Source of the DNA: Centroscyllium fabricii
Lineage: Eukaryota
Assembly: GCA_051313645.2 (NCBI GenBank)
Contig: JBNRSN020000009.1
Span: 129,704,001-129,768,000 of the forward strand
Length of the DNA: 64,000 nucleotides
Direction of reading: 5' to 3'
Shown here: piece after piece, positions 3,888-64,000 of the stretch
How positions within the stretch are numbered: position 1 is the first letter of the stretch
Layout: each line of letters starts with the position of its first letter
Notes under the pieces: model-generated
The model's input: the letters and a program-made list of their open reading frames with translations, nothing else
Told to the model about the DNA's origin: nothing
Database searches by the model: none
Position numbers and translations under genes: made by a program

Positions 3888-4623
3888 TGTGGTAAACCAT
3901 TATCCCTAATGTTATACAGGTTGAACTTCGTTGATCCGGCACCCGAAAAATCGGCAACTTTGAACGTCCGGCAATAATTTCCCCGACTGCCCTGCGCATG
4001 CGCAAAATGGCCACCGCGATCGATGCTTCGGCGAATGATCTGCGCATGCGCCGCCGAACGGCGAGTGCATGCGCAGCTCATTCACAATGGCCGAGCTGAT
4101 CCCGAGCCAAGCCTGGCCGCTGCGAGCCTCCCCGAGCCTGGCCGCTGCGAGCTTTCCCGAGCCTGGCCGCTGCGAGCTTTCCCGAGCCTGGCCGCTGCGA
4201 GCCTCCCTGAACGATCAGCGCCTGCGCAGACCACTCAAAATGGCCGCCAGCCTTTCGCGGCAGCCATTTTGAATGGTTTGTGCATGCGCTCGCCGAAACT
4301 TCAATCGTTTGGGATTTTCACTTGTCCGGTACGGGCCTGGTCCCGCCCGTGCCGGATTAACGAAGTTCAACCTGTACCACTGTTTGTACTACTGTACTGC
4401 TAAATCCTACTGTCTGTAAATACCTGTACATATACATGCAGGAGCTTGCCCCAACTGACCCCGCCCCTGACTCCACCTCCAGACTCAGTTATATAGGTGC
4501 TTGCTCACCCACCTCTGGTCAGTACACCACGGAGCTCAGCCGAGACACGCTCCATTCTTTAGTCAATAAAAGCCGTATAGTTAAGGTTAACTCTTCGCCT
4601 TTGGCCTTATTGACGGTACATCA
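3888..4623 (+). mobile_element. Gypsy solo LTR (TGTGGTAAACC type) containing a MITE
   Basis: TG...CA termini, 5-bp TSD ACCAC, TATA-like box and AATAAAAGCC. Starts like the LTRs at 43759 and 48359. Confidence 0.85.
3917..4374. mobile_element. Tc1/mariner (Tigger/pogo-like) MITE
   Basis: About 26-bp TIRs CAGGTTGAACTTCGTT(G/A)ATCCGGCAC, TA duplication, short internal tandem repeat at about 4100-4205. Confidence 0.85.
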
Positions 4624-27215: not shown

Positions 27216-27961
27216 AAAAACGGTGCGGGTTCCCTCACAGTGGTGCCGATCTGAATCTGAAGCATTCAAACCCGCTGGAATTTACTGTTGGCTGCGTGGG
27301 AGGCAACACTAGGCGTGAACGCAGGTCACTGGGCTGTCTCTCCAGCGACAGGTCTGCTGATATTTTGTCTGCTGACTTTTGATGTGTTATTGCTGTGCGT
27401 AGCAGCAAGGCTTGACTTCAGCTATCAGCAGCTCTGCCTGATAGAGCAGATAAGGTTTCTAAACAAACTGTAATTATCATTCCAGAAGCAGCATGTCGCT
27501 GGCAATGTACACAGGAAGCCCAGGGCTTCATGTCCCAGGCTGCCACGAGGTGTGCGGCATTCGTAGGCTGGCCCGGGTTGGCATGTAGTTTAATTACTAC
27601 TTGTGTTCTCACACGCTGGGGTACGGTTCCAGCAGTGCTGCCACCTTGTCCAAACAGCCACTTTTCATTTTGGGAACATTACCAGTTATTTCAATTCACT
27701 TTTGGGGTGTGGGCGTCGCTGGCAAGGCCGGCATTTATTGCCTGTCCCTAGCTGCTCCTGTGAAAGTGGGTGCTGGGCCTTGTTCTTGAGCCGCTGCAGT
27801 TTGTGTGGTGAAGGTGCTCCCACCGTGCATGATGGCTGGCTATTTAACTGTGCATGACATCGGGGCGCGCATAGACGCAGTGGCTTTGCGTCTCCCAGGA
27901 TGGTGCTGTCCGCTCATTGTTCCTGTACTGGTTCTGGGTCTGTTCGCTCGGAGGGGATGGC

Positions 27962-28290
27962 GGGGCCAGCGTGGCCGGAGCGCCGGGGCTGGCGTGGCCG
28001 GAGCACCGGGGCTGGCGTGGCCGGAGCACCGGGGTCGGCGTGTTCGGAGCGCCGGGGCTGGCGTGGTCGGAGCACCGGGGTCACCATGATTGGAGCGCCA
28101 GGGCCTGCGTGGTCGGAGCACCAGGGCCTGCATGGTCGGAGCACCAGGGCCTGCATGGTTGGAGCACCGGGGTCACCGTGGTCGGAGCACCAGGGCCTGC
28201 GTGGTTGGAGCAACGGGGTCACCGTGGTCGGAGCGCCGGGGCCGTCGTGGTCGGAGCACCGGGGCCGTCGTGGTCAGAGCACCGGGGTCA
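27962..28290. repeat. GC-rich minisatellite, 23-bp unit, about 14 copies
   Basis: Unit GGGGCTGGCGTGGCCGGAGCACC and variants. Confidence 0.9.
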
Positions 28291-28394
28291 GTGTCGGTGG
28301 CGGATGGAATGGATCAGACTGGGACTTACAGGAGAGGACATTTTAATATCAGCATCATTTCTTGGGAGTTTGCAAGTTTGCATTTTGTTGTAAT

Positions 28395-39151: not shown

Positions 39152-39432
39152 GTAAGTGTGAATAATTACAGAGGTGACCGAATGGAACGAAGACCATATA
39201 AAGATATATCTTAAAGTAATAAATCACTTCCTATTCACTTCACTAACACAGAACATTGATCCAGATGCAATATTTTGAAAGGAGGAAGGATGAGAATGAC
39301 AGGTGACGTCAGATATGCAAACAAAACGATGGTCTTCGTGATGCAATGGGGTGAAATTGGTCCATGGCAGTAGCGCAAAATGGGCTCATTGCAAATCAGT
39401 AGCCTGCTTTACACCGTGCCCAATTTTCATTT

Positions 39433-40830
39433 GAAGAGTGAAAGGAGACCCAACCATGGTGAGGAAGAGTGAGGGACCCAGCAATGGTGAGGAAGAGTGA
39501 GGGGACCCAGCAATGGTGAGGAAGAGTGCGAGGACCCAGCCATGGTGCGGAAGAGTGAGTGACCCAGCCATGGTGAGGAAGAGTGTGGGGACCCAGCCAT
39601 GGTGAGGAAGATTGAAGGACCCAGCCATGGTGAGGAAGAGTGAGGAGACCCAGCCATGGTGAGGAAAGAGTGAGGGGACCCAGCCATGATGAGGAAGAGT
39701 GAGGAGAGACCCCGCCATGGTGAGGAAGAGTGAGGAGACCCAGCCATGGTGAGGAAGAGTGAGGAGACCCAGCCATGGTGAGGAAGAGTGAGGAGAGACC
39801 CCACCATGGTGAGGAAGGGTGAGGGGACCCAGCCATGGTGAGGAAGAGTGAGGAGAGACCCCGCCATGGTGAGGAAGGGTGAGGGGACCCAGCCATGGTG
39901 AGGAAGAGTGAGGGGACCCAGCCATGGTGAGGAAGAGTGAGGGGAGACCCAGCCATGGTGAGGAAGAGTGAGGAGACCCAGCCATGATGAGGAAGAGTGA
40001 GGAGACCCAGCCATGGTGAGGAAAGAGTGAGGAGAGACCAAACAATGGTGAGGAAGAGTGAGGGGACACCGCCATGGTGAGGAAGAGTGAAGGACCCAGC
40101 CATGGTGAGGAAGAGTGAGGGGAGACCCAGCCATGGTGAGGAAGAGTGAGGAGACCCAGCCATGGTGAGGAAGAGTGAGGAGACCCAGCCATGGTGAGGA
40201 AAGAGTGAGGGGACCCAGCCATGGTGAGGAAGAGTGAGGAGAGACCAAACAATGGTGAGGAAGAGTGAGGGGACACCGCCATGGTGAGGAAGAGTGAAGG
40301 ACCCAGCCATAGTGAGGAAAGAGTGAGGGACCCAGCCATAGTGAGGAAAGAGTGAGGGGACCCAGCCATAGTGAGGAAAGAGTGAGGGGACCCAGCCATG
40401 GTGAGGAAGAGTGAGGGACCCAGCCATAGTGAGGAAAGAGTGAGGGGACCCAGCCATGGTGAGGAAGAGTGAGGGACCCAGCCATGGTGAGGAAGAGTGA
40501 GGGACCCAGCCATAGTGAGGAAGAGTGAAGGACCCAGCCATAGTGAGGAAAGAGTGAGGGGACCCAGCCATGGTGAGGAAGAGTGAGGGACCCAGCCATA
40601 GTGAGGAAAGAGTGAGGGGACCCAGCCATGGTGAGGAAGAGTGAGGGACCCAGCCATGGTGAGGAAGAGTGAGGGACCCAGCCATGGTGAGGAAGAGTGA
40701 GGGACCCAGCCATGATGCGGAAGAGTGAGGGGACCCAGCCATGGTGAGGAAGAGTGAGGGACCCAGCCATGGTGAGGAAGAGTGAGGAACCCAGCCATGA
40801 TGCGGAAGAGTGAGGGGACCCAGCCATGAT
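39433..40830. repeat. Minisatellite, ~29-32-bp unit, about 45 copies
   Basis: Unit GACCCAGCCATGGTGAGGAAGAGTGAGG(G/GA). Confidence 0.96.
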
Positions 40831-42791: not shown

Positions 42792-44039
42792 ATTCCATCT
42801 GCCACTTTCTTGCCCACTCACTTAACCGATCTATATCCCTTTGCAAACTCTTTGCATTCTCCTCACATCCTCCTCCTCCTCCAAGAGGAGGCTCCGCCAT
42901 ACTGCGTAAGGGTGTGCAGAGGTCCAGCCATGGTGGGCAGGCAATGTGCAGAGGCACAGCAGTCTTGAGGAGATGCTAAGACGGAGCTCAGCTGGTGTGA
43001 GAGACACTGAGACTGAGAAACGGGAGGGTCATATCATATGGCCGTCGCAGTCCAGATTGATGTCGCCACTTGGCTTAGGTAGCAGAGAGATTGGGTCATC
43101 CTTGGAGCTGCATCAACCAATCACTGCCTTCAGGAGAGATGGAGACAACATTTGGTGGCGTTGTGGGGGTGAGGGGGTGGGGCGGCAGGAGGAAGAATTT
43201 CAGATTCATTGTTTTAAGTAACAAAGGAATCTCAGTTAATGGAGATACAATTCAAAGGAGCTGTATATTTAGACAGCATGAAGAATTCCTGATCCCGGCA
43301 CGAACCTAATAAGGATATTTCTTGGCAAGCCACATGCATTTATGAGGTTTCAGTCAAGCAACCCTAGATGTGAGTGCGCTTGCCGTGGGTTTTAGCACTC
43401 CAGGGACTACTTTGGCATGAGATGTAACAGAAAATCCAAACTAGACCCTGCTGTGCTAAAAACTACATGAATGCCACCCACTGAATTATTATTGCCTGGA
43501 GATTAGACAGAATACAAGCTATTATCAAGAGCCTTTTTTTAAATATTACATATTTTAAATGTATTTTCTGTCGCTGTGTGTGTGATCCTTCTCCCGAACT
43601 CTTACACACAACTCTAAAGCATGAAAACGAAACATTTGACTGACTGACTAAAACCCAAACAAGCAGTGAATGATTTGTGGTGCTGCTTAGTCAACTAGAA
43701 GCCTGCTATAGGCCGAGTGGCCGTCTAATTGAAAGGAGACCCAGATTACAATAGTGTGTGTGGTAAACCACTGTATTGTATATATTGTATTATAGTTCAC
43801 TATACCTGTCTGCATGTAACCTGCCTGGGCATGCCCCTACTGACTCCGCCTGTGGCTCCTCCCCCGGACCCAGGTATAAGGCTGGCCGTCTCCCAACCCC
43901 ACTTCAGTCTTGGACCAGTCGATCAGCAGAGGTATGCTCCTGTTCTTTAGCTAACAAAAGCCTATCAATTATTCACATAACTTCTAGTCTATTGAGATCA
44001 TTGATAGCGCATCAATTTTATTAGCTAATTTTTTTTACC

Positions 44040-47000
44040 ATGGAGCAAATCTTGAAACCTGCAACGCTAGAGCTGGATCCCCAATCGCCAGATGCTGCTG
44101 ATACTTTTCAGCACTGGCTGAACTGCTTCGAAGCGTTCCTTCATGCCTCCAGCACGACTGTTCGAACCGACGCCGACAAACTGCTGGTCCTCTACTCCTG
44201 GGTGGGCCCTCGAGTGTACTCGCGAATCAGAGACGCTATGTCGTACAACGAAGCGATCAGACTTTTAAAAGTCCAGTATACCAAGAAAGTCAATATGGTC
44301 TACAACAGGCACCTCCTGGCTACCCGCAGGCAACAACCTGGGGAGTCGAGTGACGAATACCTGCAGGCGCTGACCTGTGACTGTAAAGCCGTGACGGTCA
44401 TAGCGCACACGGAGGCCCTGATCAGAGACGCCTATGTCGCCAGCATCAGGTCCGACTGTGTCCGACAAAGACTGCTGGAACAGGGTGGGCTCGACCTACA
44501 AAAGACGATGGAGCTCGCTGACTCGTTAGACGTGGCCCTCCGGAACATGGACGCCTACTCCCCTGACCATGCGACCGCCTCGTGGATGTCGTGGGCACCG
44601 CCATCTTGGGACTCGGGAAGGCCGCAGGCCTGCGCCACACTGCCACCGCTGCAACCCACCAGCGACCTGACTACAGCTGCGATATCGAGCGGCCCGACGT
44701 GTTACTTTTGCGGCCAGGCCAAACACCCCAGACAACGCTGGCGGCGAAGGACACGATCTGCTCCGCATGCGGTAAGAATGGGCACTACGCCAAGGTGTGC
44801 AGAGCCAAACCGGCCCCCAAATCCAGCAGTGCTGCGTGGGGGCCGCCATCTTGGACGCCGCCAGCCGCGTGTGAGCCATGCTGGCCGGCATCTTGGGACC
44901 GGGCCCCCGACCTCCCCACCGCCTCAACGGAGTACGACAGCGACTCATCGCACCCAACGCTGGCCTCCATCACCCTGGACCAATCCAGGCCTCACCAACT
45001 CGCCAGATCAATGATGGCCATTAAGGTAAACGGCCGCGCGACGAACTGCCTATTCGACTACGGGAGCACGGAGAGCTTCATCCACCCGGACACGGTGCGG
45101 CGCTACTCCCTGTCGGTATCGCCAGCAAGCCAAAAGATTTCGATGGCTTCAAAGTCCCATACGGCAAATGTCTGCGGCTACTGCGTGGTGACCCTGACTG
45201 TGCGGGGCACAGAATATAAGAACTTTAAACTCCTTGTGCTGCCACAGCTCTGCGCTGCCGTGCTACTGGGGCTCAACTTCCAATGTCACCTTAACAGCGT
45301 GACAATGGAGTACGATTGGCCCCTTCCTCCCCTCACTGTCTGCAGCCAGCAGTTTTTAAATCGTCCGCCGCGCACCAGCCACAGCCCCTCAGTCCCTCCC
45401 CCTGCTGCCTACAGCCAGCAGCCTTTAAATCGCTCACCGCGCATGATCTGCAGCCTCTCGACGCTTAAAGTCACCCCTCCCCCGCTGTTCACTAACCTCA
45501 CCCCAGACTGTAAGCTAGTCGCCACCAAGAGTAGGCGGTACAGTATCAGGGACAGAAACTTTATCAAGTTAGAGGTACAGTGGCTCCTGAAGGAGGGGAT
45601 CATCAAGGCTAGCACCAGCCCCTGGAGAGCTCAAGTGGTGGTGGTCAAGACTGGTGAGAAGCACCGCATGGTCATTGACTATAGTCAGACCATCAACCGA
45701 TATACGCAGCTGGACGCGTACCCCCTTCCCCGCATATCTGACATGGTCAATCAGATTGTACAATATCGGGTGTTCTCCACCATCGATTTAAAGTCTGCAT
45801 ACCACCAGCTCCCTATCCACCCGGAGGACCGCCAATATACTGCCTTCGAGGCAGATGGCCGCCTCTATCACTTCCTTCGGATCCCCTTCGGCGTCACAAA
45901 TGGGGTCTCGGTCTTCCAGCGGGAGATGGACCGAATGGTTGACCAGAACGGACTGCGGGCCATATTCCCGTATCTGGATAATGTCACCATCTGCAGCCAT
46001 GACCAGCAGGACCATGACGCCAACCTCCAGAAATTCCTCCACACCGCCAAGCTCCTAAACTTGATCTACAACAAGGAGAAATGTGTATTCCGCACAACCC
46101 GCCTCGCCATCCTTGGCTGTGTTGTGGAGAATGGGGTCATCGGTCCTGATCCCGACTGCATGCGCCCCCTCCTGGAGCTCCCCCTCCCCCACTGCCTCAA
46201 GGCCCTGAAGAGATGCCTGGGCTTCTTTTCGTATTACGCCCAGTGGGTCCCCAACCATGCGGACAAGGCCCGCCCCCTCATCAAGTCCACCTCCTTTCCC
46301 CTGACGGCAGAGGCCAGCCTGGCCTTCAGCGTTATTAAGGCAGACATTGCCAAGGCCGCAATGCACGCCGTGGACGAATCAACCCCGTTCCAGGTGGAGA
46401 GCGATGCATCCGATTTTGCCCTAGCCGCTACCCTTAACCAGGCGGGCAGACCCATGGCCTTCTTCTCACGCACCCTCCAGGGCACTGAAATTCGACACTC
46501 CTCAGTTGAGAAGGAGGCCCAGGCCATTGTGGAAGCTGTACGGCACTAGAGGCATTACCTGGCTGGTAGACGATTTACCCTGCTGACTGACCAACGTTCA
46601 GTTGCCTTTATGTTCAATAATAAGCAGCGGGGCAAAATCAAAAATGACAAGATATTGAGGTGGAGAATCGAACTCTCCACCTTTAGTTACGATATCTTGT
46701 ACCGGCCCGGGAAGCTCAACGAGCCCCCAGATGCCCGATCATGCGGTACATGTGCCAGCGCACAAGTAGACCGACTGTAGGCCCTCCACAACAACCTCTG
46801 CCACCTGGGGGTCACTGTGGTGTATGGACAACATACACCTATGTACCGATGATGCTAGACTCTACCTCGGCATCACCCCTCCATATCGCCCCGGTGCTAT
46901 ACGATGGCCTGTGCCTTTAAGGATGGTGCTGGGCACTGCATCATGTGATGTTACCAGGCTGCAGTACCCTTACCAGCCACTGTCGTGTGTATATAAGCTC

Positions 47001-48306
47001 GCATGTGTAGTTCCTGTTCAGTCTTCCATTAGTCCTCAGTCCTCGAGGGGTTCGCTATTAGTCCTGTACTAGACAAGGCTGTAAGCTAATGTAAATATGT
47101 TGGCGCGAGAAGCGCCACGGGTTAAGTTGTGATTTTACCATGCCAGTAAACATCACCCAGTTAGAACTTAACTTGAGTCTGTCGTCATTTGTCCTCCTTC
47201 TAACATTAAACGTAACAATGGCGATAGATTTAACAGTCACCAGGTTCTTCCACTTCATCAAGGCCCGCAACTTACCCTACTCCATCGAGGAGGTCAGGAC
47301 CATGACCAGGAACTGCCAGGTCTGCGCGGAGTGCAAACGGCACTTCTATCGGCCAGACAGAGCACACCTGATAAAGGCCACCCGCCCTTTCGAGCGCCTC
47401 AGCGTCGACTTTAAAGGGCCTCCCCCTCCTCTGACCGCAACGCGTACTTCCTCAATGTCATTGAGTACTCACGTTTCCCGTTTGCCATCCCCTGTCCGGA
47501 CATGACCTCCGCCGCGGTCATTAAGGCCCTGCACAGCCTCTTCACCCTGTTCGGGTACCCCAGCTATATCCATAGCGACCGGGGCTCATCTTTTATGAGT
47601 GATGAGCTGCACCAGTACCTGCTCACCCAAGGCATCGCCAGGAGCAGGACTACCAGCTACAACCCCCAAGGGAACGGACAGGTTGAGAGGGAGAACGCGA
47701 CTGTCTGGAAGGCCGCCCTGCTAGCTCTGAAGTCTAGAGGCCTTCCTGTCTCCCACTGGAAGGACGTCCTCCCCGATGCGCTGCACTCCATCAGATTGCT
47801 CCTTTGTATGGCCACCAACGCTACCCCTCACGAAAAACTGTTTGTCTTCCCAGGAAGTCCGCCTCAGGGACCTCGCTGCCATCATGGCTGACGTCCCCGG
47901 GACCTGTCCTGTTCCGGAAGCACGTGAGGGGCCATAAGTCAGACCCCCTGGTCGAAAGGGTCCACCTCCCCATGCCAACCCTCAATACGCCTACGTGGCG
48001 TTCCCTGACGGGCTGGAGGGCACGGTCTCCATCAGAGATCTGGCACCCTCAGGAGCCCCCGAGACCAACACAGCCCACCACCCCGCACCTTCACCCCCCA
48101 CCACTACCCACGCTGCATCAGTACTATGGTATGTTGTTCCAGCCCCTTTGGACAGCACGTGGCCACGCACCCACCAACTCGACGTGGCTGAGGACGACAC
48201 TCCGGTGCTCCAGACCGCCCAGGACTCAACACCAGAACCTGCACCACGACCGGCTCTACGACAGTCGCAGCGGTGGACCAGACCCCCCGAAAGACTCAAT
48301 TTATAG
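44040..48306 (+). pseudogene. gag-pol of provirus D with frameshifts, stops and a nested LTR
   Basis: Gag MEQILKP, CYFCG..H and CSACGKNGHYAKVC knuckles, protease LFDYGS, RT YLDN, RNase H SDASD, integrase VDFKG/HSDRG/VEREN. Confidence 0.9.
46816..47235. mobile_element. Solo LTR nested in the integrase of provirus D
   Basis: TGT...ACA termini, TSD GTCAC. The integrase sequence rejoins across it. Confidence 0.88.
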
Positions 48307-49190
48307 TGACTGTTGATCTGCTTCACCCCGCCAGACTCTTTTTTAAACAGGGGGTGAATGTGGTAAACCACTGTATTGTATATATTGTATTATAGTTCAC
48401 TATACCTGTCTGTATGTAACCTGCCTGGGCATGTCCCTGCTGACTCCGCCTGTGGCTCCTCCCCCAGACCCAGGTATAAGGCTGGCCCGTCTCCCAACCC
48501 CCACTCAGTCTGGGACCAGTCGATCAGCAGAGGTAAGCTCCTGTTCTTTAGCTAATAAAAGCCTATCGATTATTCTCATAGTTTCTAGTCTTTTGAGGTT
48601 ATTGATAGCGCATCATGTAGTAATAACACAAGGGGCTGTTTGTTTATTGATCAGCGTTAAAGAGGAAGAATATTCATCTTAAGTATCTCATATAGCCCAA
48701 ATACAATAAAGGGACATATCTGTACGCTTCCTGGGGCGTCTCGGTTTTCCTTCTTTTCCGTGCTTTTAAATTGCTGGTCAGAAAGAGCCTTTGGATAAGC
48801 CACTTGGTGTAAAGTCCCCTCTTCAGTGGCATCAGGAGTGGGTAGTTCTGACCATAGCCCTCTGTCCCCAGGGTATGGACAAAGAGGAACCTCGGAACAG
48901 GGGAGCATGGGGAGAAACAATATATATACAGGTTGAGCACCGTTAATCCGGCACGGGCGGGACCAGGCCCGTGCCGGGAAATGGAAAAAACCGGGAGAAC
49001 GAGTTTGGACACTGCGCATGCGCACCAGTCACAATGGCAGCGCGCATGCGCGCAACATTGGTATTGGCTGGCGCGCGCATGCGCAGATCGTCCAATATTG
49101 GCCGCCGCGAAGTTTTTTGATGGGCTCAGGCTTTTGTGGCGTTCCGTTTAGGTTTTAGGGCTGTCGGGCAGCAGTGAAAGGCCGGTCTTG

Positions 49191-49606
49191 CGGGGGGAGG
49201 CAGGAGGGTGGCGTGGCGTGGCGTGGCGCGGGGGAGGGGGGGGAGGAAGGCGCGGGTCCGGGGGGGGGGGAGGAAGGCGCGGGGCGGGGGGGGGGGGAGA
49301 AAGGCCGGGGGAGGGAGGAAGGCGCGGGGCGGGGGGGGGGGGGAGGAGGAGGAAGGCGCGGGGCGGGGGGGGGGGAGGAAGGCCCGGGGGGGCGGGGGGG
49401 AGGAAGGCGCGGGGCGGGGGGGGGAGGAAGGCGTGGGGCGGGGGGGGGGGGAGGAAGGCGCGGTGGGGGGGGAGGAAGGCGCGGGGGGGGGCGGGGGGGA
49501 GGAAGGCGCGGGGGGGGGCGGGGGGGAGGAAGGCGCGGGTCCGGGGGGGAGGAAGGCGCGGGTCCGGGGGGGGGGAAAGGAGGGTGGCGCGGGTCGGCGG
49601 GGGGGC
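49191..49606. repeat. G-rich minisatellite (GGAGGAAGGCGCGGGGC-Gn)
   Basis: About 14 units with long G runs. Confidence 0.88.
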
Positions 49607-49630
49607 AATTTATCCAATCCCGTTTTGCTC

Positions 49631-49838
49631 TGTAAGAGGTCACACGGCGCCAGGCTGTGGTCCAACGGTTTTAGTTGGGGTCACGGGCTTTCGGAGCGCC
49701 GCTTCCCCGTCAGGTGATGGGGGAGCGGCGCTCCGAAGGTCCGTGATTTCGAGTGGGACTTTTGGACTACAGCCTGGTGCTGTGTGGCTTCTTACAATTG
49801 TCCATCCCAGTCCAACACCAGCACCTCCACATCATGGC
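49631..49838. mobile_element. Penelope-like inverted terminal repeat hairpin
   Basis: About 82-bp arms at 49631-49712 and 49715-49796. Homologous to 41598-41725. Confidence 0.7.
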
Positions 49839-50354
49839 TTCAATTACAGTTATCGATAAAATAACCGGCGGCCGTATTGAATTATCTGCGCATGCGCTAA
49901 CCTTCCGGCGACGCATGCGCAGATTATTCAAAACACCCGCAGCTGTTTTGAATGATCTGCGCATGCGCTCGGCGCATGCGCAGATCGTTCGTTGAAGCCA
50001 CGATGTCGGCTGCCATTTTGCGCATGCGCAGTGCAGTCGGGGCAATTTGTGCCGGCAGACTGAAGCTGCCGGCTATTCGGTTACCGGATTAACGGTGCTC
50101 AACCAGTATTTTCTTAATTCACGGAATGTGGGCGTTGCTGGCAATGCCAGCATTCGTTGCCGATTCCTTGTTGAGCACATAATCTAGGCTGACACTCCAG
50201 GGCAGTACTGAGGGAGTGCTGCACTGTTGGAGGTGCCGTCCTTCAGATGAGGCATTAAACTAAAGCTCTGTCTGCCTGTTCTAATGGTACAGGCAGATGT
50301 TACAGAGCCATGGTGCTACTGATCCCCCAGTGTCCTGATCAATGTTCCTCCCTC

Positions 50355-51162
50355 TGTCCCTTATCTAAGGAAGAATGTTCTTGCCATGGAGGGAGTGCAG
50401 CAAAGATTCACCAGACTGATACCTGGGATGGCAGGAATGACATATGAGGAGAGATTGGGTCGATTGGGCTTACAGTCGCTGGAGTTTAGAAGAATGAGAG
50501 GGGATCTCATTGAAATTTCTAAAGTTCTAACAGGACTGGTGTGATGAACCTTTTGGTGTGGTTCACACTGTACGGTTATTGTATATAGTTTTGTTTAATG
50601 TGTTTGTTATATATCTGTACCTTTCTGTAAGGACCTGTACCGGCTGACCCCGCCTCTGGGGACTAGTATAAAGGAAAATGCTCCGCCCACTTATCTCTCA
50701 TTCCGGGCAGGCTCATCGGGGACATGGTTCAGTTCCTTGTGAATAAAAGCCACTTATTTAAGAACTCGCTGCCATCTTTGATTTGAGGCATCTCAACTGG
50801 ACAGACTAGATGCAGGAAGGATGTTCCCAATGGCGGGAGAGTCCAGAACCAGGGGTCACAGTCTAAGGATAAGGGGTAAGCCATTCAGGACAGAGATGAG
50901 GAGGAATTTCTTCACCCAGAGAGTGGTGAACCTGTGGAATTCTCTACCACAGAAGGCAGTAGAGGCCAATTTATTAAATATATTCAAGAAGGAGTTGGAT
51001 ATATTTCTTAAGGCTAAAGGGATCAAGGGATCAAGGGCTATGGGGAGAAAGCAGGGACAGGGTACTGAATTTGGATGATCAGCCATGATCGCATTGAATG
51101 GCAGAGCAGGCTTGAGGGTCCAAATGGCCTACTCCTGTTCCTATCTTCTATGTTTCTATGTT
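50355..51162 (+). mobile_element. CR1 3' fragment interrupted by a solo LTR
   Basis: Colinear with 30320-30880. ORF 50821-51078 and a TTCTATGT tail. Confidence 0.9.
50540..50795 (+). mobile_element. Gypsy solo LTR
   Basis: TG...CA termini, TSD ACTGG, TATAAA and AATAAAAGCC. Confidence 0.88.
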
Positions 51163-51503
51163 CCGATGTCAGTGCCAGAGTAACACATTAATTGCTCATT
51201 CATCTCATTAGACTTGTGGGACTTTACTGCGTTTAAAATGGCTTCTGCACTTACCCATTTGAAATGATAAATGTCCAGTGCAATTCATTCTACGTAAATT
51301 ACGCTGGCATGTTTCTGAGAGACAGGTGATAAGATATCAGTCGAATTAATACCACAAATTCTAGGCCAATGTGTTTTCTTTTTAAAATGTCTTTCTCTCT
51401 GCTGCTTCTTCTCAGCTTTAAATAAAAAGTTACAGATACTGAATAAATACTCCCACCGTTAATGTCAAGGATGCCACCTCACTATGATTTAATCTCTCTT
51501 CAG

Positions 51504-51545
51504 GACAAATCACCCATCACCTCAATGAACCTGTCCAGGAAACGG
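51504..51545 (+). CDS. SEMA3: Class-3 semaphorin exon (42 bp)
   Basis: ctcttcAG / GTAAGC boundaries. Reads DKSPITSMNLSRKR, phase 0 at both ends. Confidence 0.9.
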
Positions 51546-52499
51546 GTAAGCAAGCAGATCCTGGGTATTTGATGCCCATTTGTTACAATTCATGATGAAA
51601 TCTTTGGATTGAAATGTAAAATCAGAATGTCCGGGGTGATAGATCGTGAAAATGGCTCTCCTGGGAGTGAGGTCAGAGAGCAATGGAACAGAGATTACTT
51701 ACCATTGCTGGTACAGTCCACAAGCCAGCGTTTACTTGTGTAACCTCCGAAAACCTATTTAACTTTGCCCAATAATGAGAAAGATTGACACCAATTCACG
51801 GCAAACAGCGACAGTTCTTGGAAGACAGATATCGCTGGCTCGCAGGTGACTCTTTCTCTCAGTCGTGTGGTTGGGCTGCGTTTTGCTAGTTTCTCGGGCA
51901 GTGGTCACCTGGGTAGATTACCTCGGAACATGCCACCCCTCTGAGGGAGAGGGAGGGCGTATCAGTGTCCGGAACAATGCCTGCGTTCTGCTAAACAAAT
52001 GGAGCAGTGACGAAATAAAACTGTGAACCGCCGGCTCCCCAGTGTGTATTAAAAAAAACCACAAACTGAAACTGGGGAGTATTATATTGGTAGGACTTAA
52101 TGCAATTATTACTCGGAGCCTCATAGAACATCGACCGTTTATTGTAGTAGCAGCGGGTACAAGACAATATGGCGCTGGGGTTACCCAGCATGCCTTGGTG
52201 ATGGAACATACCAACTGCCACAGCCCTTAAGGGGAGTGCAGACTATACCAATACATCACAGGGAGAGATTTCCAGGCAAAAACATCTTCTCGGGATTCAG
52301 GGTCCATATTGCACCTGGACGCCTCACTGTGATTAACGTGTTGCAGTCGGGCCAGTTGGTGTCCTCTCTCTCGATGGACTAAATCACCCAAGAACCTGTG
52401 CCACCCGCAGGGGCCTTGAATGTATTAGACGGCTCATTGGGAGACCATGAGCACACTGGACCTGTGCCTTTCTGTCCACTGATTTCGATGCACCTGCCG

Positions 52500-52742
52500 T
52501 TCCTGGCTCAATGTTGGCGCACTCACCTCTAGCTCAGATCATTGTGGGTTCAAGCTCCACAGCAGGACTTGAGCACAGAATCTAAGTTGACACTTCACTG
52601 AGGGAGTGCTGCACTGTCGGAGGTGTCGTCTTTCAGATGAGACGTTGAACCAAGGCCCCGTCTGCCCTCTCAGGTAGATGTAAAAGACCCCACAGCGCTA
52701 TTTCGAAGAAGAGCAGGGGAGTTCTCCCGGTGTCCTGACCAA
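52500..52742 (+). mobile_element. DeuSINE 5' part
   Basis: Colinear with 38353-38600. Confidence 0.7.
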
Positions 52743-53024
52743 AAGTGAGTTGTTGTGGTGGAAGTGGATTCAATAGGAACTTTCAAAAGGGAACTTTCAG
52801 AGCGGTCAATTAGTCCCACTCCCTCCCCTCCTTCCCCAGAGCCCTGCAATTTTTTTTCATTTTCAAGTATTTATCCAATTCCCTTTTAAAAGTTCCTATT
52901 GAATCCACTTCCTATTGAATCCACTTCCACTTTACACAGGCACAATGGGCCGAATGGCCTCCTTCTGTGCTGTAAGATTCTATGATCCGAGCTTAAAGAA
53001 TGGCGTCCTTAACTCAATTACTGA

Positions 53025-54884
<1,860 letters not shown>

Positions 54885-55594
54885 TAAAAAGAAAACCAGT
54901 CACTCCCTGATGGTTTTTCTGACCTTAACAACCTGGCCCTATCTCTTAAAGGCAGGAATTGCGGATATACGAACAGCTGCCAATCTATAGAAACTTCCCT
55001 CAGCAATTGGCCCCAGGATGTGCCTATTTAGACCGCATCTCCGTCCCCATTCCCAGAGATCTTGAGCAGTGGTGTTACAGGGGCACGTCAGTTTAAGTAT
55101 AACTCCATCCTAGCAGCTCACCAGCACAACTGTGTTCCAAGATCCAGGCTACCCCTGGGTAAGTACCACAGAATATCAGCAAGCTCCATATAAAATCGAA
55201 CACTGGTCTCTGGATTGTACTTTACCGCATGCCAATTTCTAGGGGATTCGTTTTGTATTCATCAAGCGAGGGATGTGAGGGATGGTGTATGGAACAGCTT
55301 ATGTAGCAGCATGCACTCCCAGGTCAGACAGAACCTGGAACGTCCGTTAACGAATTAAGCTCCCTCTCACCGTCTAATAATGTGAATTAACCCAAATCTG
55401 AGAAACACACTTCCTGCTGCCAAAGATGGAATTTTTACATTTTGCACACCAGGCATGCGGATTGGCGTAAGTGAGAGGGCCAGTTGGTCCTGATGCCTGG
55501 GATGGTCCCAACTACTGTACCAGCCAAGAAAACATCCACTGAATTCTAAGAGAAAAAGTCCCCCTCCCAAAGAAAGGAAGATTAAAAATTCCTC

Positions 55595-55865
55595 AATAAC
55601 ACACTCCCAGTATCCATTTTTTATACGTATAAACCACCTAAACCCCTCGATTATATTGCAGCCTGTAGCTCACTCCCAGTATCCAATTTTCTATATATAA
55701 CACATACCAATCCCTCAATCAAATCGCTGCCTGCCGCTCGCTTTTAGTCAATCATTATTCTACATATATTCTATATATAAAACACCTGAAAGCCCTAGAT
55801 TAGGTTCCAGCCTATAAATCTCCCGGGGATCCATTCTATATATAAACATCCGAACCCTCCATTAT
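55595..55865. repeat. Degenerate ~65-70-bp tandem repeat
   Basis: Recurring CTCCCAGTATCCA..TATATAAA..ACC..AACCCCTCGATT..GCCTGTA, about 4 units. Confidence 0.6.
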
Positions 55866-56107
55866 GTGTAATTATCGCTCTCTAATTTCACCGCATAATG
55901 AGACTATCTGTGAAATAAATGTTATGGATTGGGCAGCTTTCATAAACCCTTTCCGAGGCAACAGATATGGCCATTGACACAAGCCATCTGAATTCTTTGC
56001 TGTTGGATACCGTTCAAATAAAACACAGGATAAAAGGGAGCGCTTCGGATTGAGACTTCAGTGGGCTGCTGTTGAACCTGACCCCTTGCTGTTATGTTTG
56101 CTTGCAG

Positions 56108-56169
56108 AAGACACACTCGACAGGTCACTCTGAATGGAGACCCTCTGACCCAGTGCTTCAACCAGGGAG
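56108..56169 (+). CDS. SEMA3: Class-3 semaphorin exon (62 bp, basic cleavage region and end of PSI)
   Basis: cttgcAG / GTAAGT boundaries. Reads (R)RHTRQVTLNGDPLTQCFNQG, compare SEMA3A RRTRRQDIRNGDPLTHC. Phase 2 matches the previous exon. Confidence 0.9.
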
Positions 56170-56645
56170 GTAAGTGTCACACAAAGGAGCCAGGAGGTCA
56201 GCCCACTCATGAGTGCAATCATTGAAACTCCCGCACATCAGAAGTAGCCTGTCAAACTGTTTGAGGTTTATTTAGAATTCTTTAAAAGGTTTTTATTTTG
56301 ACAAATAATCAAGCAGTTTTCCAGTTTTGCCTTCCTGAAATGCTGAAGACAAAAAGGAGCTCAGTACGGCCCCTGTGCCTGCAAACGCCAATCTCCGGCC
56401 AGAAAAACTGGCTGCGTAGAAGTGAAAGGGGGGATTTTTTCCAGATCTGAACAGCAGTTTCAGAAGCTTTCAAAATAAAAGATTAAGAAGTAACAGGAAA
56501 GAGAAAGGGATCTTAGAGAGGACAACTGGAGCATTTTCTATCAGGACATTTTATAAAAGTTACCTTATTGCAGCTGGATTTCTGTATTTAAAAAGGTCTA
56601 ATTTCCTGTTCCCAGTGAAAGCCCAGAAAAAGGTTACAGAGTAAA

Positions 56646-56936
56646 TGATACCTTATCAATAACCTCGGAGACGAGAAGTTATGTGGTGAATAAAAGGCTT
56701 TTATTCGCTAAGACATGGGCATGCCCCAGCTAGTCGACTGCTCCCGGAATGATTGGGGGGAGGGAGACAGTCACCTTTACACCTGGTCCAGGGGGAGGAG
56801 CCACAGGCGGAGTCAGCACGGGCATGCCCAGACAAGCTATACAGGGAGAACTATACACACAGAGAGGTGGTCATATATATACAATGCTACAGGCCGTGGA
56901 TATGGCACAGACATATATATATTGTGGTTTACCACA
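56646..56936 (-). mobile_element. Gypsy solo LTR (TGTGGTAAACC type)
   Basis: TSD GTAAA. Similar to LTR 60062-60330. Confidence 0.9.
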
Positions 56937-57121
56937 GTAAAACTGTGCAGAGGTCAGCCATTTTGAGGCTAAGTGCCGGAGTGTCCATTTTGAGATATGA
57001 TTTTGAATGGGAAGAGGAATGATGAGGGAGCGGTACCTGTCCCTGATTCAGAGACAGGAGAAGACTTTTGTACATTTTGTGGACTCTGAACCCTGCACCA
57101 GGCCTATATAGACCATGTGAG

Positions 57122-58910
57122 TGTAAGGGGTTTGCGCCGTGCTTTACGCGACCTAGGGTCCTATTGCCTTGCTCTAGCCACCGGCCAGGCCTCGCGCAAT
57201 GATCCCCCGTGAGTGGTTCGACCCACTCGCCCTTACGATTCTCTACGCTGGACTTAGATGCAGGAAAGAGTGATGCAGAGACTGGACTCGAACAAACTCG
57301 GCTTTAGTAAAAGTTCAAATGGATCTTTATTGTAGCAGACAGTAGATTCACATACATCATCATCATCGGACATACACGTCCCACACTAAAACAGTATCAA
57401 ATATAAATATATATATATATCTATATAAATGTATCCGACACACGCTACTATCCTTATAAAATGGGGAACACACGACACATCGATAAGGGGTCAACACTCT
57501 ATTGATTACCCTCTAAAAACCAACCCTCCCCTATATTGCCTAAACTATGTCCAGGTGTGTAGGATCGGGGAACATGCTCACCACTCGGTTAAACTCGGGG
57601 TCTGCTATGGGGTTCGTGTTTCTCCGCTGCAGTGCTGGTCGTCACGTGGCTGTGGAAGATTCGGGAGCTCACTTGTTGACGTCTCCCTCTCGGCGGCGGC
57701 TGGCTCTGCTCGGGCTGGCCCCGGGCGGGTCTCTCGAAACCTCGCTACCTCTCAACGTTCCACTGCCTGCCGTACCGGGCGCTGAAACCGCGCTGTCTTC
57801 CTGGCTGAACCGGGCCCTGTGGTGAGCCGGTCCTGCACTCTTGAGCCGATCTGTAACTGACTGCCTTTCTCGTTGTTTGTCCGACTGTCTCTCCCGGGCT
57901 ATGCTGCCCGTTCTAAACTCGACTTAACTGCCGAACTATGGGTTCCGTGCCCAATCCTTGAGGACCTCCAAGATCTCCAGTACCTCGTTTAGTTCCTTCA
58001 GCACCTCCAGTACCTCCAGTACTCAGTTAGTTCCCCGAGTACCTCCAGTATCTCCTGCACTATGCCTCAGCGCTAGCAGGCAACTAACTTTTACTCTGCA
58101 GCAGTCGCCGCTCGGGCCCAACTCTACCGTCCCGCAGCCTCCAGCACCTGCTCCTCAGAACAGTACCGGGCCTTCAGTGTCTCTCTGCGGACGACCCGAT
58201 GTCCCCAACTCCTCACCACTGTGCAACCGAGTACCTGTGCAACCGAGTCACCCCCGTAACTGTGTCCTCAACGTCTAACATGTCTTATTGTTATAATGCG
58301 AAACTGTGGGCTTATCTCCCGCCCAAATCGTGAAATCTTTTGTGATAATAATGGTTCGGATGTCTCTGTTGTCTGGTTAACCTGTTCCGGGATGGCCCGA
58401 GAACGGCCTTAACTAGCTGTGAAATGTTCTTCCTTTGTCGGGAAATTATGTAAATGGCGTATCGATGGTTTTGCTGTTCAAACTTAAGTCTGACTATCCG
58501 GGTCAGTCAATCGGTTTCTGGCGGTGTCATATTTAAACCCATTAAATGATGTACTGTATTGTTTGGCTAAACGGGCCCAGTCAATCGGTTTCGGGGAAGG
58601 CTTGTTGGATCTTCCAACAAGTGTTATTCCTCGGCGCCCCCATGTCTGGGCGCTGGCTAGTTTTTCGCGGGCTTTTGCAGGGCTCATGCATAATGTTTGT
58701 CTGGACGGCAGTTAAGTATATTCAGATGTCTCGAAAGTTCTGGTCGGCTTGTCACGGGGTCTGGTGGCCATCTTAGGGGCCCCTTTCTTTCTCTCTCTTT
58801 CAACAAGCCGCAGCCCTTTTCTGCGTTGCAGCCATTTTGCTCAATAAAGTGTCTAATTAAACTGGCTGTCTCCTGTCGTTTTTAATCGTGGTAATATTGC
58901 GACCTTTACA
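57122..58910. mobile_element. Long (1.79 kb) solo-LTR-like element
   Basis: TGTAAGG...TTTACA termini, 4-bp TSD TGAG. Homologous to 10068-16573. Confidence 0.82.
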
Positions 58911-59180
58911 TGAGCCAACAGTGTATGAAATTGAAATCGTGATGAAGTCTTGAAAAATCACTGCAGTTGAATATTCTGACAAAAGACGGAGGAGAGAAGA
59001 CACACCGTGTACCAGCTATGCCTTCAAGAATGTGCTGCCATCTTAAGATATTGGCAGCTTCTAAATGCTTCCAAACCTCTACCACCGCTGCCCGCACTGC
59101 CCCCCACCGCCATTCTCTCCCAGGTTGCATGGGAGTTGTGCCCCTAACCCGCCATTGAATATTTAAACGAATTGGCCCCG

Positions 59181-59457
59181 TGATGCACGATCAAGACGAA
59201 GTTAAGAATACAACTGAGGCTTTTATTAACTAAGAACTGAAGTACAGGTCTTGTCTTGTTACTAACCGGTCCTGGAATGCCACGAGGTCAGCAGGGCTGT
59301 GACCTTTATACGGCAGCCTGTGGGTGGAGCCAGGAGGCGGAGCCGGCTGAGGCATCCCAGGTAGATCTCAGGTGGACAAGAGGTAACTATGTATAATAGT
59401 GTTAGTGTCCAGATAACTATATACAGTACAGCATTAGTGGTAAACCATATCACCACA
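59181..59457 (-). mobile_element. Gypsy solo LTR
   Basis: TSD CCCCG. Minus strand reads TGTGGT...AATAAAAAGCC...CATCA. Confidence 0.87.
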
Positions 59458-59774
59458 CCCCGCAAATTCACCAGCAGCTGGTGGTGCCGCCCTTGGTGCA
59501 CAAACAGCAATGTGGATTTTCGGAGCCTGAAATGTTAGTGAGCAGTTCAACCGTGGAAGTCAGCACACCCATGTCACTTCCACTTTCAGCAGCAGTCACT
59601 GGACAGTGATCAGGAGTGATAACCTGAGCTGATTTCCTCCTCCCTAGCCCTGTGGCCAATGTTAACCCTCAAACGCTGATTCAGCATAGACAGAGTCGAA
59701 GTTGGGGCCTGTTTTCGGCCTGCATGGTTCAGTGCCTCACCCATTTGGCCATTGTGGGGGGGCGCGGGGGGAAG

Positions 59775-60061
59775 TGTGGTAATCATGTATATAACCACTG
59801 TATATAGTTGCCGGTTACCTTTGTAATGCTGTAGGCTAGGTCAGCCACACCCCTGACTCCTCCCCTCAGGTCGGAGTATTTAGGTGAGTGCTGACCTGCC
59901 CCCACTCATTCTTCACCTTGACCTCATCAGAAGACCAGCTCCATTCTTAGTTAATAAAAGCCTGTAGTTTAGGTAACTACTCGTCTTTGTGTGATTAATT
60001 GACGATACGTCAATTTTATTAACTAAATTTTTAAACATGGAGAGCAATGCAGTGAAACCGG
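59775..60061 (+). mobile_element. 5' LTR, leader and gag start of Gypsy provirus E, interrupted by provirus F
   Basis: LTR 59775-60012, a leader like that of provirus D, and ATG at 60037 (MESNAVKP, compare MEQILKP). Confidence 0.8.
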
Positions 60062-63000
60062 TGATACCGAATCAATGACCTCGGAGACGAGATGTAATGA
60101 GGTGAAACAAAAGGCTTTTATTAGCTAAAAGGTTGGGCATGCACCAGCTAGTTGACCGCTCCCAGAATGAATGGGGGAAGGGAGACAGTCACTTATGTAC
60201 CTGTCCTGGGAGGAGGAGTCACAGGCGGGGCAAGCATGGGCATGCCCAGGTAAACAATATACAAAGAATTATATACATTATCACAGGCCGTTGGTTACAC
60301 ACATATATATATACAAAGTGGTTTACCACATTCACCTCTTGTTTAAAAACAAAGTCCGGCGGGGCAAATGTGACGCAGTTCTTAGAGGTCAAGCCTGTCG
60401 GGCGGCCTGGTCTGCCTCGTCGATCGGTGCACTGCTGGTGGTGGAGTCGGCGGGCGCACCGTTGGCAGTGGAGTCGGTAACAGCGAGGTCGGCGGGGGCG
60501 TTCGATCCGTCGTTGGGCCCCTTGCGGTAACAATCAGGGGCGCGCTCTCCCTTTCGTCATCCGGCTCGCGGGTGCGTAGACTAGGGGGCCATACTGTGCT
60601 GCCTGCAGGTGCTGGGTGGGCATACCATGGCGCTGGAGCCTCGTAGTGAGCGGCGTACCATGGTGCTGGTGCCCCGAAGGTGGCGGTAGGCAGGGGGGGG
60701 TGCGGGCTGATGGGTCGTACTGGTCTCGGGGGCACCCGCGGGTGCCAGGTCCTTGATGGACACCGTATCCTCCCTCCCGTCAGGGTACGCCACGTAGGCG
60801 TACTGGGGGTTGGCGTGCAGGAGGTGGACCCGTTCGACCAGGGGGTCCGACTTATGGCCCCTCACGTGCTTCCGGAGCAGGACGGGTCCTGGGGACGATA
60901 GCCATGACGGCAGCGAGGTCCCGGAAGCCGACTTCCTAGGGAAGGCAAAGAGTTGCTCGTGAGGGGTGGCGTTAGTGGCCGTACATAAAAGTGACCGAAT
61001 GGAGTGGAGCGCTTCGGGGAGGACATCCTGCCAGCGGGAGACTGGGAGGCCTTTAGACAGTAGGGCTAACAGGATGGCCTTCCAGACGGTGGCGTTCTCC
61101 CTCTCTACCTGTCTGTTCCCCCGGGGGTTATAGCTGGTAGTCCTGCTAGTAGCGATGCCCTTGGCTAGCAGGAACTGACACAGCTCGTCACTCATAAAGG
61201 AGGCCCCCCGGTCGCTGTGGATGTAGCTGGGGTAGCCGAACAGGGAGAAAATGCTGTGAAGTGCCCTGATGACTGTGGAGGAGGTCATGTCCGGGCAGGG
61301 GATGGCAAAGGGGAAACGCGAGTACTCGTCAATGACGTTTAAAAAGTACGCGTTGCGGTTGGAAGAGGGGAGGGGCCCTTTAAAGTCGACGCTGAGTCGC
61401 TCAAAGGGGCGGGTGGCCTTGATCAGGTGCGCCCGGTCTGCCGAAAGAAGTGCGGCTTGCACTCCGCACAGACCTGGCAGTTCCTGGTCATGATCTTGAC
61501 CTCCTTGATGGAGTAGGGGAGGTTGCGGGACTTAATGAAATGGACCAACCTGGTGACCCCCGGGTGGCAGAGGTCATTGTGCAGGGTTTGGAGATGGTCC
61601 ACTTGTGCGTTGGCACGTGCACCGCGGGACAGGCCGTCTGGGGGCTCGTTGAATTTCCCGGGCCGGTACAAGATATCGTAATTGAAAGCGGAGAGTTCGA
61701 TTCTCCACCTCAATATCTTGTCGTTCTTGATTTTACCCCGCTCTTTGTTGTTGAACATGAATGCGACTGAGTGTTGGTCAGTCAGCAGGGTAAATCGTTT
61801 GCCGGCCAGGTAGTGCTTCCAGTGTCGCACTGCTTCAACAATGGCCTGGGCCTCCTTCTCCACGGAAGAGTGACGGGTCTCGGGTCCCTGGAGAGTGTGT
61901 GAGAAGAAGGCCACAGGTCTGCCCGCCTGGTTAAGGGTGGCGGCCAGGGCAAAGTCCGATGCATCGTTGGAACGGAACGGCCTCGTCCACAGCGTGCATC
62001 GCGGCCTTTGCGATGTCTCTCTTTATGCCGCAGAAAGCCGAGCGGGCCTCAGCCGACAGGGGAAATGAGGTTGATTTAAGTAGTGGGCGGGCTTTGTCTG
62101 CATAGTTGGGGACCCACTGGGCAAAGTAAGAAAAGAACCCCAGGCACCTTTTCAGGGCCTTGAGGGAGTGGGGGAGGGGGAGCTCCAGGAGGGGGCGCAT
62201 GCGGTCCGGGTCGGGACCGATGACCCCATTCTCCACAACACTGCCGAGGATGGCGAGGTGGGTTGTCCTGAACACACATTTTTCCGTGTTATAGGTCAGG
62301 TTTAACATTTTGGCGGTGCGGAGAAATTTCTGGAGGTTGGCGTCATGGTCCTGCTGGTCGTGGCCGCAGATGGTCACATTATCAAGATACGGAAAGGTGG
62401 CCCGCAGTCCGTACTGATCAACCATTCAGTCCATCTCTCTTTGGAAGACCGAGACCCCGTTGGTGACGCCAAACGGAACTCTGAGGAAGTGATAGAGGCG
62501 GCCGTCAGCCTCGAAGGCAGTATAGTGACGGTCCTCTGAGCAGATGGGGAGCTGATGATACGCAGACTTCAGATCGATGGTGGAGAAGACCCGAAACTGA
62601 GCGATCTGGTTCACCATACCCGCTATGAGGGGGAGGGGATACGCATCTAGCTGCGTAAACCGGTCGATGGTCTGACTGTAGTCCACAACCATCCAGTGTT
62701 TGGCTCCGGTCTTCAACACCACTACCTGCACCCTCCAGGGGCTATTACTGGCCTCGATGACCCCCTCCTTCACGAGCCGCTTCACCTCGGACTTAATGAA
62801 GTCTCTGTCCCCGGTACTGTAGCGCCTACTTTTGGTGGCGACGGGCTTGCAGTCCGGGGTGAGGTTGGCAAAGAGCGAGGGGGGGGCGACCTTAAGGGTC
62901 GAGAGGCCACAGGTAGCGCGCTGTGGGTACTGCGGGGAGCGCTGGTTGCTGACCGTGAGCGGTTGAAGGGGCCCACCGTACGCCATGGTAACGCTCTGGA

Positions 63001-64000
63001 GGTGGCACTGAAAGTCGAGGCCCAGCAGTAAGGGAGCGCAGAGCTGCGGCAGCACGAATACTTTAAAATTACTGAAGTGTACGCCCCGCACTGTCAGGGT
63101 CACTACGCAGCGACCGCAGACGTCCGCAGATTCGGACTTAGACGCCATCGCTATTTTTTGGCTAGCCGGCATGACTTTAAGGGAGAAGCGCTTTACCGTA
63201 TCTGGATGGATGAAGCTCGCCATGCTCCCGCTGTCAAAAAGGCAATCCGCACTCCGCCCGTTCACCTGCACCGTCATCATAGATCTGCTCAGTGGCTGGC
63301 TCTTGTTCTGGTCGAGTGTGATGGAGGCCAGAATCGGGTCAGTCGAGTCGGTTGAGAGGTCTGGGGCCTGGTCCCAAGATGGCTGCCGCCATGCGGCGGG
63401 CTGTGATGGAGATGACTGTGTCCAAGATGGTGTCTGCTCCCACGCGGCGGGCTGTGATGAAGATGGCTGTGTCCAAGATGGCTGCCCCCACGGCCCACAC
63501 GCGGCGCTGCCCAGTTTGGAGGGCGGTATTGCCGCTGCTCTGCAGACTTTAGCGAAATATCCTTTCTTACCGCACTTCGAGCAGGCCGCGTCTCTTGTCG
63601 GGCAGTTTCGCCTGGGATGTTGGGCCTGGCCGCAGAAGTAACATTTAGGCCCTCTCGAGTGCGTAGCCGCAGTCATCTCTTCCGCCAGTCGCGGCGCGGC
63701 CGGCTGTGACCATGATGTCGGCGCCGACGATGGGGCCACGTGGTTGCCCGAGTAAGACGACAAGTTAAGGGACGCCAAGTCCAGCGCGTTCCCCAGGTCA
63801 GCTGTCGCCTGCAGGTCCATACCATTTTGTTCCAAATGTCTTTGGCGGATGTAATCGGACCTGAGGCCAGTCACATAAGCGTCCCTGATGAGACTTTCCG
63901 AGTGCACCTGGGCTGTCTGTGACTTACAGTTGCAGGCCCGGCAGAGGACTCTCAGCGCTCGTAGGAACTCCACGCTTGATTCCCCGGGTTGCTGCTTTCT
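60062..64000 (-). mobile_element. Gypsy provirus F (same group as D), degenerate, runs off the window end
   Basis: 3' LTR at 60062-60330 and PPT. ORF pieces 62426-63973, 61931-62425, 61423-61914 and 60581-61462 carry zinc knuckles, LFDSGS, YLDN, RNase H and integrase. Confidence 0.93.

Follow-up and report, generated by a model that had tools for sequence, protein, structure and literature searches.

In long terminal repeat (LTR) retrotransposons primed by a tRNA, the primer-binding site is copied anew from that primer every cycle. Self-priming, in which the element's own RNA serves as the primer, has to our knowledge been proven only for the fission-yeast element Tf1 and is otherwise tied mainly to its chromovirus kin. 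As described in the available text of the respective reports, the opening 11 bases of Tf1 RNA pair with the primer site and RNase H makes its cut between bases 11 and 12 (PMC7175516), the primer site is copied into complementary DNA (PMC11042837), and a three-duplex structure is common to the Tf1/sushi chromoviruses (PMC10085805, PMC4600332). Self-priming has also been predicted for the plant Tcn1 and TAR (Houba, Osr-1) lineages (PMC6317226, in part), and the Dictyostelium element Skipper carries a non-tRNA, pyrimidine-rich sequence at the primer position (PMC5006619, in part). Here, a 64,000-nucleotide stretch (the window) of the 7.2 Gb genome of Centroscyllium fabricii (contig JBNRSN020000009.1, positions 129,704,001 to 129,768,000, forward strand) was analysed. 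Within it two Gypsy elements, D and E, carry at the primer-binding-site position a 13-nt sequence complementary to a segment of their own LTR, termed the partner.

Like Tf1, Tf2, Tj1 and the Tf1/sushi elements in general, D, E and their relatives possess no tRNA site, and the site beside the 5′ LTR complements the element's own LTR. Unlike them, they form a separate reverse transcriptase (RT) group without a chromodomain, pair over 13 rather than 11 nt, have a partner that overlaps the polyadenylation (poly(A)) hexamer near the LTR end with no TATA box at 30 nt, and show one flanking hairpin where Tf1 has the three-duplex structure. The clade works like Tf1 yet is not a member of Tf1/sushi, being set apart by RT group, chromodomain and three-duplex structure. 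With Tcn1 and TAR it shares a self-priming predicted from sequence and, with TAR, a position outside the chromoviruses; those lineages, however, are plant elements, TAR belongs to Ty1/copia, and an overlap with the poly(A) hexamer is not mentioned in the available part of the source (PMC6317226). Skipper likewise has a non-tRNA sequence at the primer position but, as far as the available text describes it, is a chromovirus with no complement in its own LTR.

The leader of D holds TTTTATTAGCTAA, the exact complement of the partner in its 3′ LTR, and in E the leader sequence TTTTATTAACTAA faces TTAGTTAATAAAA in the LTR. All four 13-mers were found where an initial annotation of the window had placed them, and the single change that it had noted in the 5′ LTR copy of the D partner, against an exact 3′ copy, was also seen. 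From base composition, an exact 13-nt match is expected 2.9e-06 times per LTR in D and 5.5e-06 times in E. The core of the D segment, TTAGCTAA, is a palindrome, and D taken alone could be read as a direct repeat; because E and other families are non-palindromic, the true relation is complementarity. A third version of the pair, TTTTATTAACTTC against GAAGTTAATAAAA, is held by element G (L031:3871-7899 (-)), which lies just outside the window and has a single open reading frame (ORF) of 1343 aa.

The pairing was followed across the clade in 136 copies forming 36 groups, 63 copies from this genome and 73 from 80 metagenome loci, the other seven loci being excluded for want of a gag start. When the anchor was confined to positions 1-9 and no best copy was selected, it held in 100 of the 136 copies and 27 of the 36 groups. 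Positions 10, 11, 12 and 13 then paired in 27, 27, 26 and 26 of the 27 groups, against permutation means of 21.4, 18.6, 8.6 and 12.2, so that the complementarity whose persistence in further families the initial annotation had proposed as a test is kept at 10-11 in every anchored group and at 12-13 in 26/27. No G-U pair occurred at positions 1-14 of these groups. Further out, position 14 paired in 17/27, position 15 in 19/27 (10.4 expected) and position 16 in 12 plus six G-U, and from position 17 on pairing was at chance level. Four of the nine unanchored groups match by eye (L073, F via its 3′ LTR, L083 and L141). In a set of 30 representatives, each picked as the best copy, pairing holds in 386 of 390 cells, whereas 20000 permutations give 258 ± 8 and at most 294. 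They carry 26 different LTR 13-mers and 27 different site sequences, each site tracking its own LTR.

On a gag tree of 29 of the 30 representatives, positions 1-13 required 68 steps for the LTR, 71 for the leader and 71 for the pair, and at positions 17-20 pair steps far exceeded the steps of either side. Since pair steps about equal single-side steps within the helix, relatedness does not explain the pairing. The view that pairing is maintained while the sequence changes, drawn initially from D and E, is therefore borne out clade-wide by both permutation and tree. The register is also fixed, the site always beginning one base after the 5′ LTR and the spacer never pairing with the base after the partner; the one-base spacer was built into the junction pattern, and LTR ends taken from direct repeats give the same register. 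At the level of sequence, the feature is real and clade-wide.

Variation within the D family follows the same rule. D-type junctions in the genome bear A at site position 8 in 576 cases and C in 344, and in 179 intact copies of 199 the LTR-site combinations at that position are T-A in 103, G-C in 46, T-C in 15 and other in 15, frequencies that are biased by the choice of 70 copies for their C form. Old copies have decayed, with 31 of 77 scorable D copies perfect and 30 carrying one mismatch. That a single-base variant is tracked by the site makes it hardly credible that a host RNA, such as a tRNA half or small RNA, primes these elements and the LTR match is incidental. Half-tRNA primers do exist in some Copia lineages (PMC6317226, available part), but TGG, the start of a tRNA site, opens no site in the clade, the 27 site sequences each follow their own LTR, and Rfam gave just a sub-threshold U2 match at D in a search that did not take in host tRNAs directly.

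The Gypsy clade to which D and E belong is distinct, lies outside the chromoviruses and is present in this genome and in many invertebrates. The elements show the features of Ty3/gypsy, with TG...CA LTRs (about 150-270 bp across the clade), a polypurine tract and the order gag, protease, RT, RNase H, integrase, the last four of which lie in Gypsy order in both D and F, a further member. Of 7998 candidates in a profile search, 754 proteins matched at E <= 1e-100. The 120 matches listed came from, among others, a sea anemone, a nematode, a woodlouse, an aphid and three lepidopterans, and a Nematostella gag was also recovered; no relative was found among the viral contigs searched. The median length of these 120 proteins is 1202 aa; two zinc knuckles lie in the gag of 118, GPY/F is present in none, and precomputed Pfam hits show the chromodomain (PF00385) in none. 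The RT active-site motif is YXDN in 65 of them and YXDD in 54; D, F and G carry YXDN, and 'YLDN' together with 'reverse transcriptase' was not found in the literature searched. An RT-RNase H tree was built from 29 of 48 rows, the other 19 having been dropped as near-duplicates, fragments or other elements. In it the 26 clade members formed one group (Shimodaira-Hasegawa-like approximate likelihood ratio 99, branch 2.48), to which chromovirus C, the tRNA-primed element B and P0017 did not belong. This quick tree, with long outgroup branches and no Tf1 sequence, demonstrates distinctness and not the root. P0017, the one putative Mag-like outgroup, falls outside the clade on long branches; two zinc knuckles in gag also mark the Mag lineage. 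Cigr-1 of Ciona combines LTRs of about 245 bp with a single ORF of some 3.6 kb and a gag of Mag type, and judged by these LTR and ORF sizes the present clade may be the Cigr-1 clade. That clade occurs in molluscs, and in the available main text of the paper on it the terms PBS, primer binding and priming do not occur (PMC6238403).

A Watson-Crick-only match of sharp length in a fixed register would be expected if the site were re-copied from its primer in each cycle. In this way, self-priming in some form is very probable on the sequence pattern, and the part of the initial annotation that proposed tRNA-independent priming by the element's own RNA stands on the fixed register, the clade-wide covariation and the lack of G-U pairs. 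Its other proposal, a switch that hides the poly(A) signal of the 5′ LTR, found no support as the main role of the helix. A hexamer lies inside the paired segment in 24 of the 30 representatives (AATAAA in 11, ATTAAA in 13), the site tracking the switch between them, and only the 5′ copy has a nearby partner, both of which would suit a helix that merely hides the signal while something else primes. However, six representatives have no hexamer inside the segment (in one, ATTAAA spans the predicted cut) although all 13 of their positions pair, and L077, L098 and L109 contain no recognisable hexamer and nevertheless pair 13/13; masking is therefore not what maintains the pairing. A masking hairpin would also need no exact one-base register, the lack of G-U is unexpected when the adjacent hairpin does use it, and the elements would be left without a primer. 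Poly(A) hiding as the main role is thus not supported, and as a complete explanation it is very unlikely, although masking may be a side effect of the helix.

The position of the partner within the transcript bears on where such a primer would come from. In element C, a chromovirus of the same window, the TATA box TATATAAA lies 31 nt before a partner in a Tf1-type 11-nt self-complement (25876-25886 against 25609-25619), which is the Tf1 arrangement. Every representative of the present clade lacks a TATA-like box at 25-35 nt ahead of the 13-mer. The TATA-like boxes of this genome's families are found farther off, 68-95 nt upstream of the partner, and predicted starts therefore fall 38-65 nt before it; in those RNAs the 13-bp helix is predicted at a mean pair probability of 0.84-0.99. 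The partner of the 5′ LTR is only 23-71 nt from the LTR end and site, compared with 255 nt in element C. The initial annotation had likewise placed the partner inside the transcript, a claim for which promoter geometry, through predicted starts, is the one line of support. If instead the replicative transcript began at the 13-mer and the TATA box drove another transcript, the geometry would be that of Tf1 itself, and the sharp 13-nt length would be as expected of a 5′ primer. The A at position 11 (25/30) and G at position 10 (27/30), with variable neighbours (43949-43950 in the window), do resemble an initiator, and Tf2 has alternative starts (PMC5341516, in part). Position 13 (a pyrimidine in 25 of 30 readable cases) and the freely variable position 12 are unlike an initiator, however, and together with the missing TATA box, the pairing at position 15 and a mosaic edge near the TATA-predicted start, which indicate RNA upstream of the 13-mer, they make a start at the 13-mer improbable.

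The other end of the partner is sharply defined. The base following it is G or A in 31/31 cases and the next is C in 31/31, and a hairpin opened by this RCC starts right after the partner, with a summed stem of 122 against 86 ± 6 in shuffles and a first pair of G-U in 18, G-C in 9 and A-U in 4 of the 31. From the sequence, this A/RCC junction is read as the 3′ end of the primer. A primer made by splicing was rejected, as the partner consists of 13 contiguous genomic bases spanning the AG, and a purine occupies position 12 in 16/30. The observed features, namely a site without TGG, the one-base register, 13 Watson-Crick pairs and the hairpin directly after the partner, can be assembled into a candidate route. 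Transcription from the predicted start would give a capped primer of 50-80 nt whose last 13 nt pair with the site. By analogy to Tf1, the element's RNase H would cut where the 13-bp helix meets the RCC hairpin. Plus-strand synthesis would then copy about 13 nt of the primer and so rewrite the site from the LTR each cycle, and because of this rewriting both sides would change together without G-U. As a side effect, the helix would cover the 5′ poly(A) hexamer only. RNase H of Ty3 and cauliflower mosaic virus cuts 11-13 nt from the polymerase site (PMC11363490, in part), and the copied length of about 13 nt may reflect this polymerase-RNase H spacing.

We judge it reasonably probable that this animal Gypsy clade self-primes independently of Tf1, with a primer from the transcript interior (ending by a cut at A/RCC or at the RNA 3′ end) and a helix of triple role; if so, one 13-bp helix would be primer, template rewriting site and cover for the 5′ poly(A) signal. 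That D and E prime with their own RNA after a Tf1-like cut of the internal segment in the 5′ copy, at A/RCC, has a little better than even odds. The 3′ copy (of the same or a co-packaged RNA) or an LTR transcript acting in trans, trimmed or cut to A/RCC, could equally well account for the covariation, and the 5′ template would then stay whole, with strong-stop DNA reaching the cap and a long repeat region (R) left for strand transfer. Position 15, paired in 19/27 against 10.4, also suggests a primer strand extending upstream. This origin of the primer is nonetheless unlikely. The 5′ copy is the one only 23-71 nt from the site and predicted paired at 0.84-0.99, the other arm of the RCC hairpin lies 24-43 nt downstream in several families, likely past the poly(A) site, and Tf1 uses its 5′ copy. 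We know of no case of a self-primer from a 3′ copy or in trans.

Mosaic LTRs between subfamilies, taken as marks of strong-stop DNA reach, bear on the same choice. In three lineages (X2; L318; L305/L315/L219) a foreign U5, the LTR part downstream of R, is joined to the element's own R and partner, and the swapped part begins only after the last marker in R or the partner (left edge between 43952 and 43967 in X2); in X2 and L318 the mosaic is present in both LTRs. As own R and partner are retained, these swaps of U5 alone fit a cut template and speak against a primer from the 3′ copy or in trans. Three further copies have a swap in distal U5 only. By contrast, L176/L026 carries in both LTRs an R block whose left edge, between 43903 and 43921, is at the predicted start, as an uncut template would leave it, and the edge in L201 (one LTR seen) is near the predicted start and fits an uncut template better. 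Each of the two patterns could also arise in the rival model, given a transfer made early or a second switch. These edges are a hint of an R start near 43903-43921 rather than at the 13-mer. Among the first 90 D copies, linkage offered no informative marker in R. L226 (5′ T, 3′ G) was left out as a later mutation, which L270 probably is too, and L231 as ambiguous.

Several observations, in addition to the two uncut-type mosaics, weigh against priming from a cut 5′ copy. After the cut only a short R stretch would remain for strand transfer. The RCC hairpin is weak in D, L002 and the I-type families, and the three-duplex structure of Tf1 is unmatched, the stem at the U5 end (124 against 126) and that downstream of the site (186 against 182) being at chance level. 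The invertebrate families, which lack a TATA box altogether, leave their start unconstrained. In contigs from two possible RNA runs and one other, neither a start nor an end, a poly(A) end or a joint inside R was seen, which is neutral, and two search patterns for polyadenylated retrocopies marking the 3′ end gave 0 matches. No partner was found in 5 of the 36 groups (L095/L097, L110/L128, L084, L133 and L134), which have too little upstream DNA, no LTR, or, as in L084, no explanation. L084 is a clade member by RT whose leader has no LTR partner, and may be a contig chimera or an exception.

Two other structures were considered and set aside as clade features. A U5-end hairpin that includes the LTR end (44000-44016 and 60000-60014) is clear in D, E and F, with covariation between D and E, yet stays at chance level clade-wide. 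Between R and the region of the gag start codon, predicted pairing exceeds that of shuffles in six related families of this genome (p 0.003); as a conserved feature this was rejected, with no covariation in this genome (p 0.56) or in 24 families (p 0.65). By eye, an inverted repeat joins the bases after the TATA box to the R start (43881-43920; clearest in G), and could form in the 3′ RNA copy only. L344, which is the 3′ LTR of L026, has a short inversion that takes in the partner segment together with the bases preceding it.

Table. Positions of clade elements, their paired segments and associated features in the window
Feature	Position	Strand	Remark
Element D, Gypsy	43759-48615	+	gag-pol between two LTRs
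D 5′ LTR, TG...CA	43759..44014	+	93% identity to 3′ LTR
D TATA-like box	43875..43880	+	start predicted near 43906, ~41 nt 5′ of partner
D 5′ LTR partner, predicted primer segment	43947..43959	+	one change in this copy
D predicted primer end	43959/43960	+	GCC directly after
D one-base spacer (A), LTR end to primer site	44015..44015	+	
D primer-binding-site position, 13 nt	44016..44028	+	complement of LTR partner
D gag-pol, frameshifted and stop-broken	44040..48316	+	Pfam: protease, RT, RNase H; integrase region via similarity to F
D polypurine tract	48345..48358	+	
D 3′ LTR	48359..48615	+	
D 3′ LTR partner including AATAAA	48548..48560	+	exact complement of D leader site
R-gag start pairing sites	43935-43942 with 44040-44047; 59940-59944 with 60037-60042		
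E 5′ LTR	59775..60012	+	TATA-like box 59877-59884, start predicted near 59908
E LTR partner, TTTTATTAACTAA/TTAGTTAATAAAA pair	59947..59959	+	
E hairpin opened by RCC after partner (GCCTG / TAGGT)	59960..59974	+	hairpin enriched clade-wide
E primer-binding-site position	60014..60026	+	complement of E LTR partner
E gag start up to F insertion	60037..60061	+	5-bp duplication 60057-60061
Element F, same clade, inserted in E	60062..64000	-	continues to 64569 past window
F 3′ LTR	60062-60330	-	partner at 60116-60128
Partner-type segment, solo LTR of clade	4559..4571	+	
Partner-type segment, solo LTR of clade	56699..56711	-	G variant at position 8
Partner-type segment, solo LTR of clade	59221..59233	-	
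Element C, chromovirus with chromodomain	20597-26042	-	

E had been described as a provirus, but it is not whole here: its first gag codons are split by the minus-strand element F and the rest of gag lies past the window. D is without a matching target-site duplication (43754-43758 against 48616-48620), its relatives having 5 bp, and its two LTRs are of different U5 types; D may be a recombinant of two copies. Elsewhere in the window, elements A (5303-10057) and B (10326-15103) are neighbouring Gypsy copies that are some 95% alike and carry a tRNA-type site beginning with TGG, and tandem arrays lie at 27917-28353, 39416-40814, 49188-49631 and 53172-54900, with units of about 23, 29, 9-27 and 14 bp.

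Repbase reportedly contains notes on 'self-primed' Gypsy families in aquatic animals, and prior notice of the signature is quite possible. It was undescribed in the literature searched, which was seen in part, lay mostly outside subscription journals and did not extend to Repbase or the primary Tf1 papers. The part new to specialists is the internal position of the primer, which is still a proposal. If true, self-priming would have arisen separately in a clade whose members, numbering hundreds, are spread over cnidarians, nematodes, crustaceans, insects and this vertebrate-sized genome. Were the primer internal, it would demonstrate that an RT is able to produce a 3′ end at a distance from the cap, and it would couple priming to poly(A) control. 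For annotation, LTR finders that require a tRNA site miss or mislabel such elements, and the elements themselves would evade silencing by tRNA fragments aimed at the primer site.

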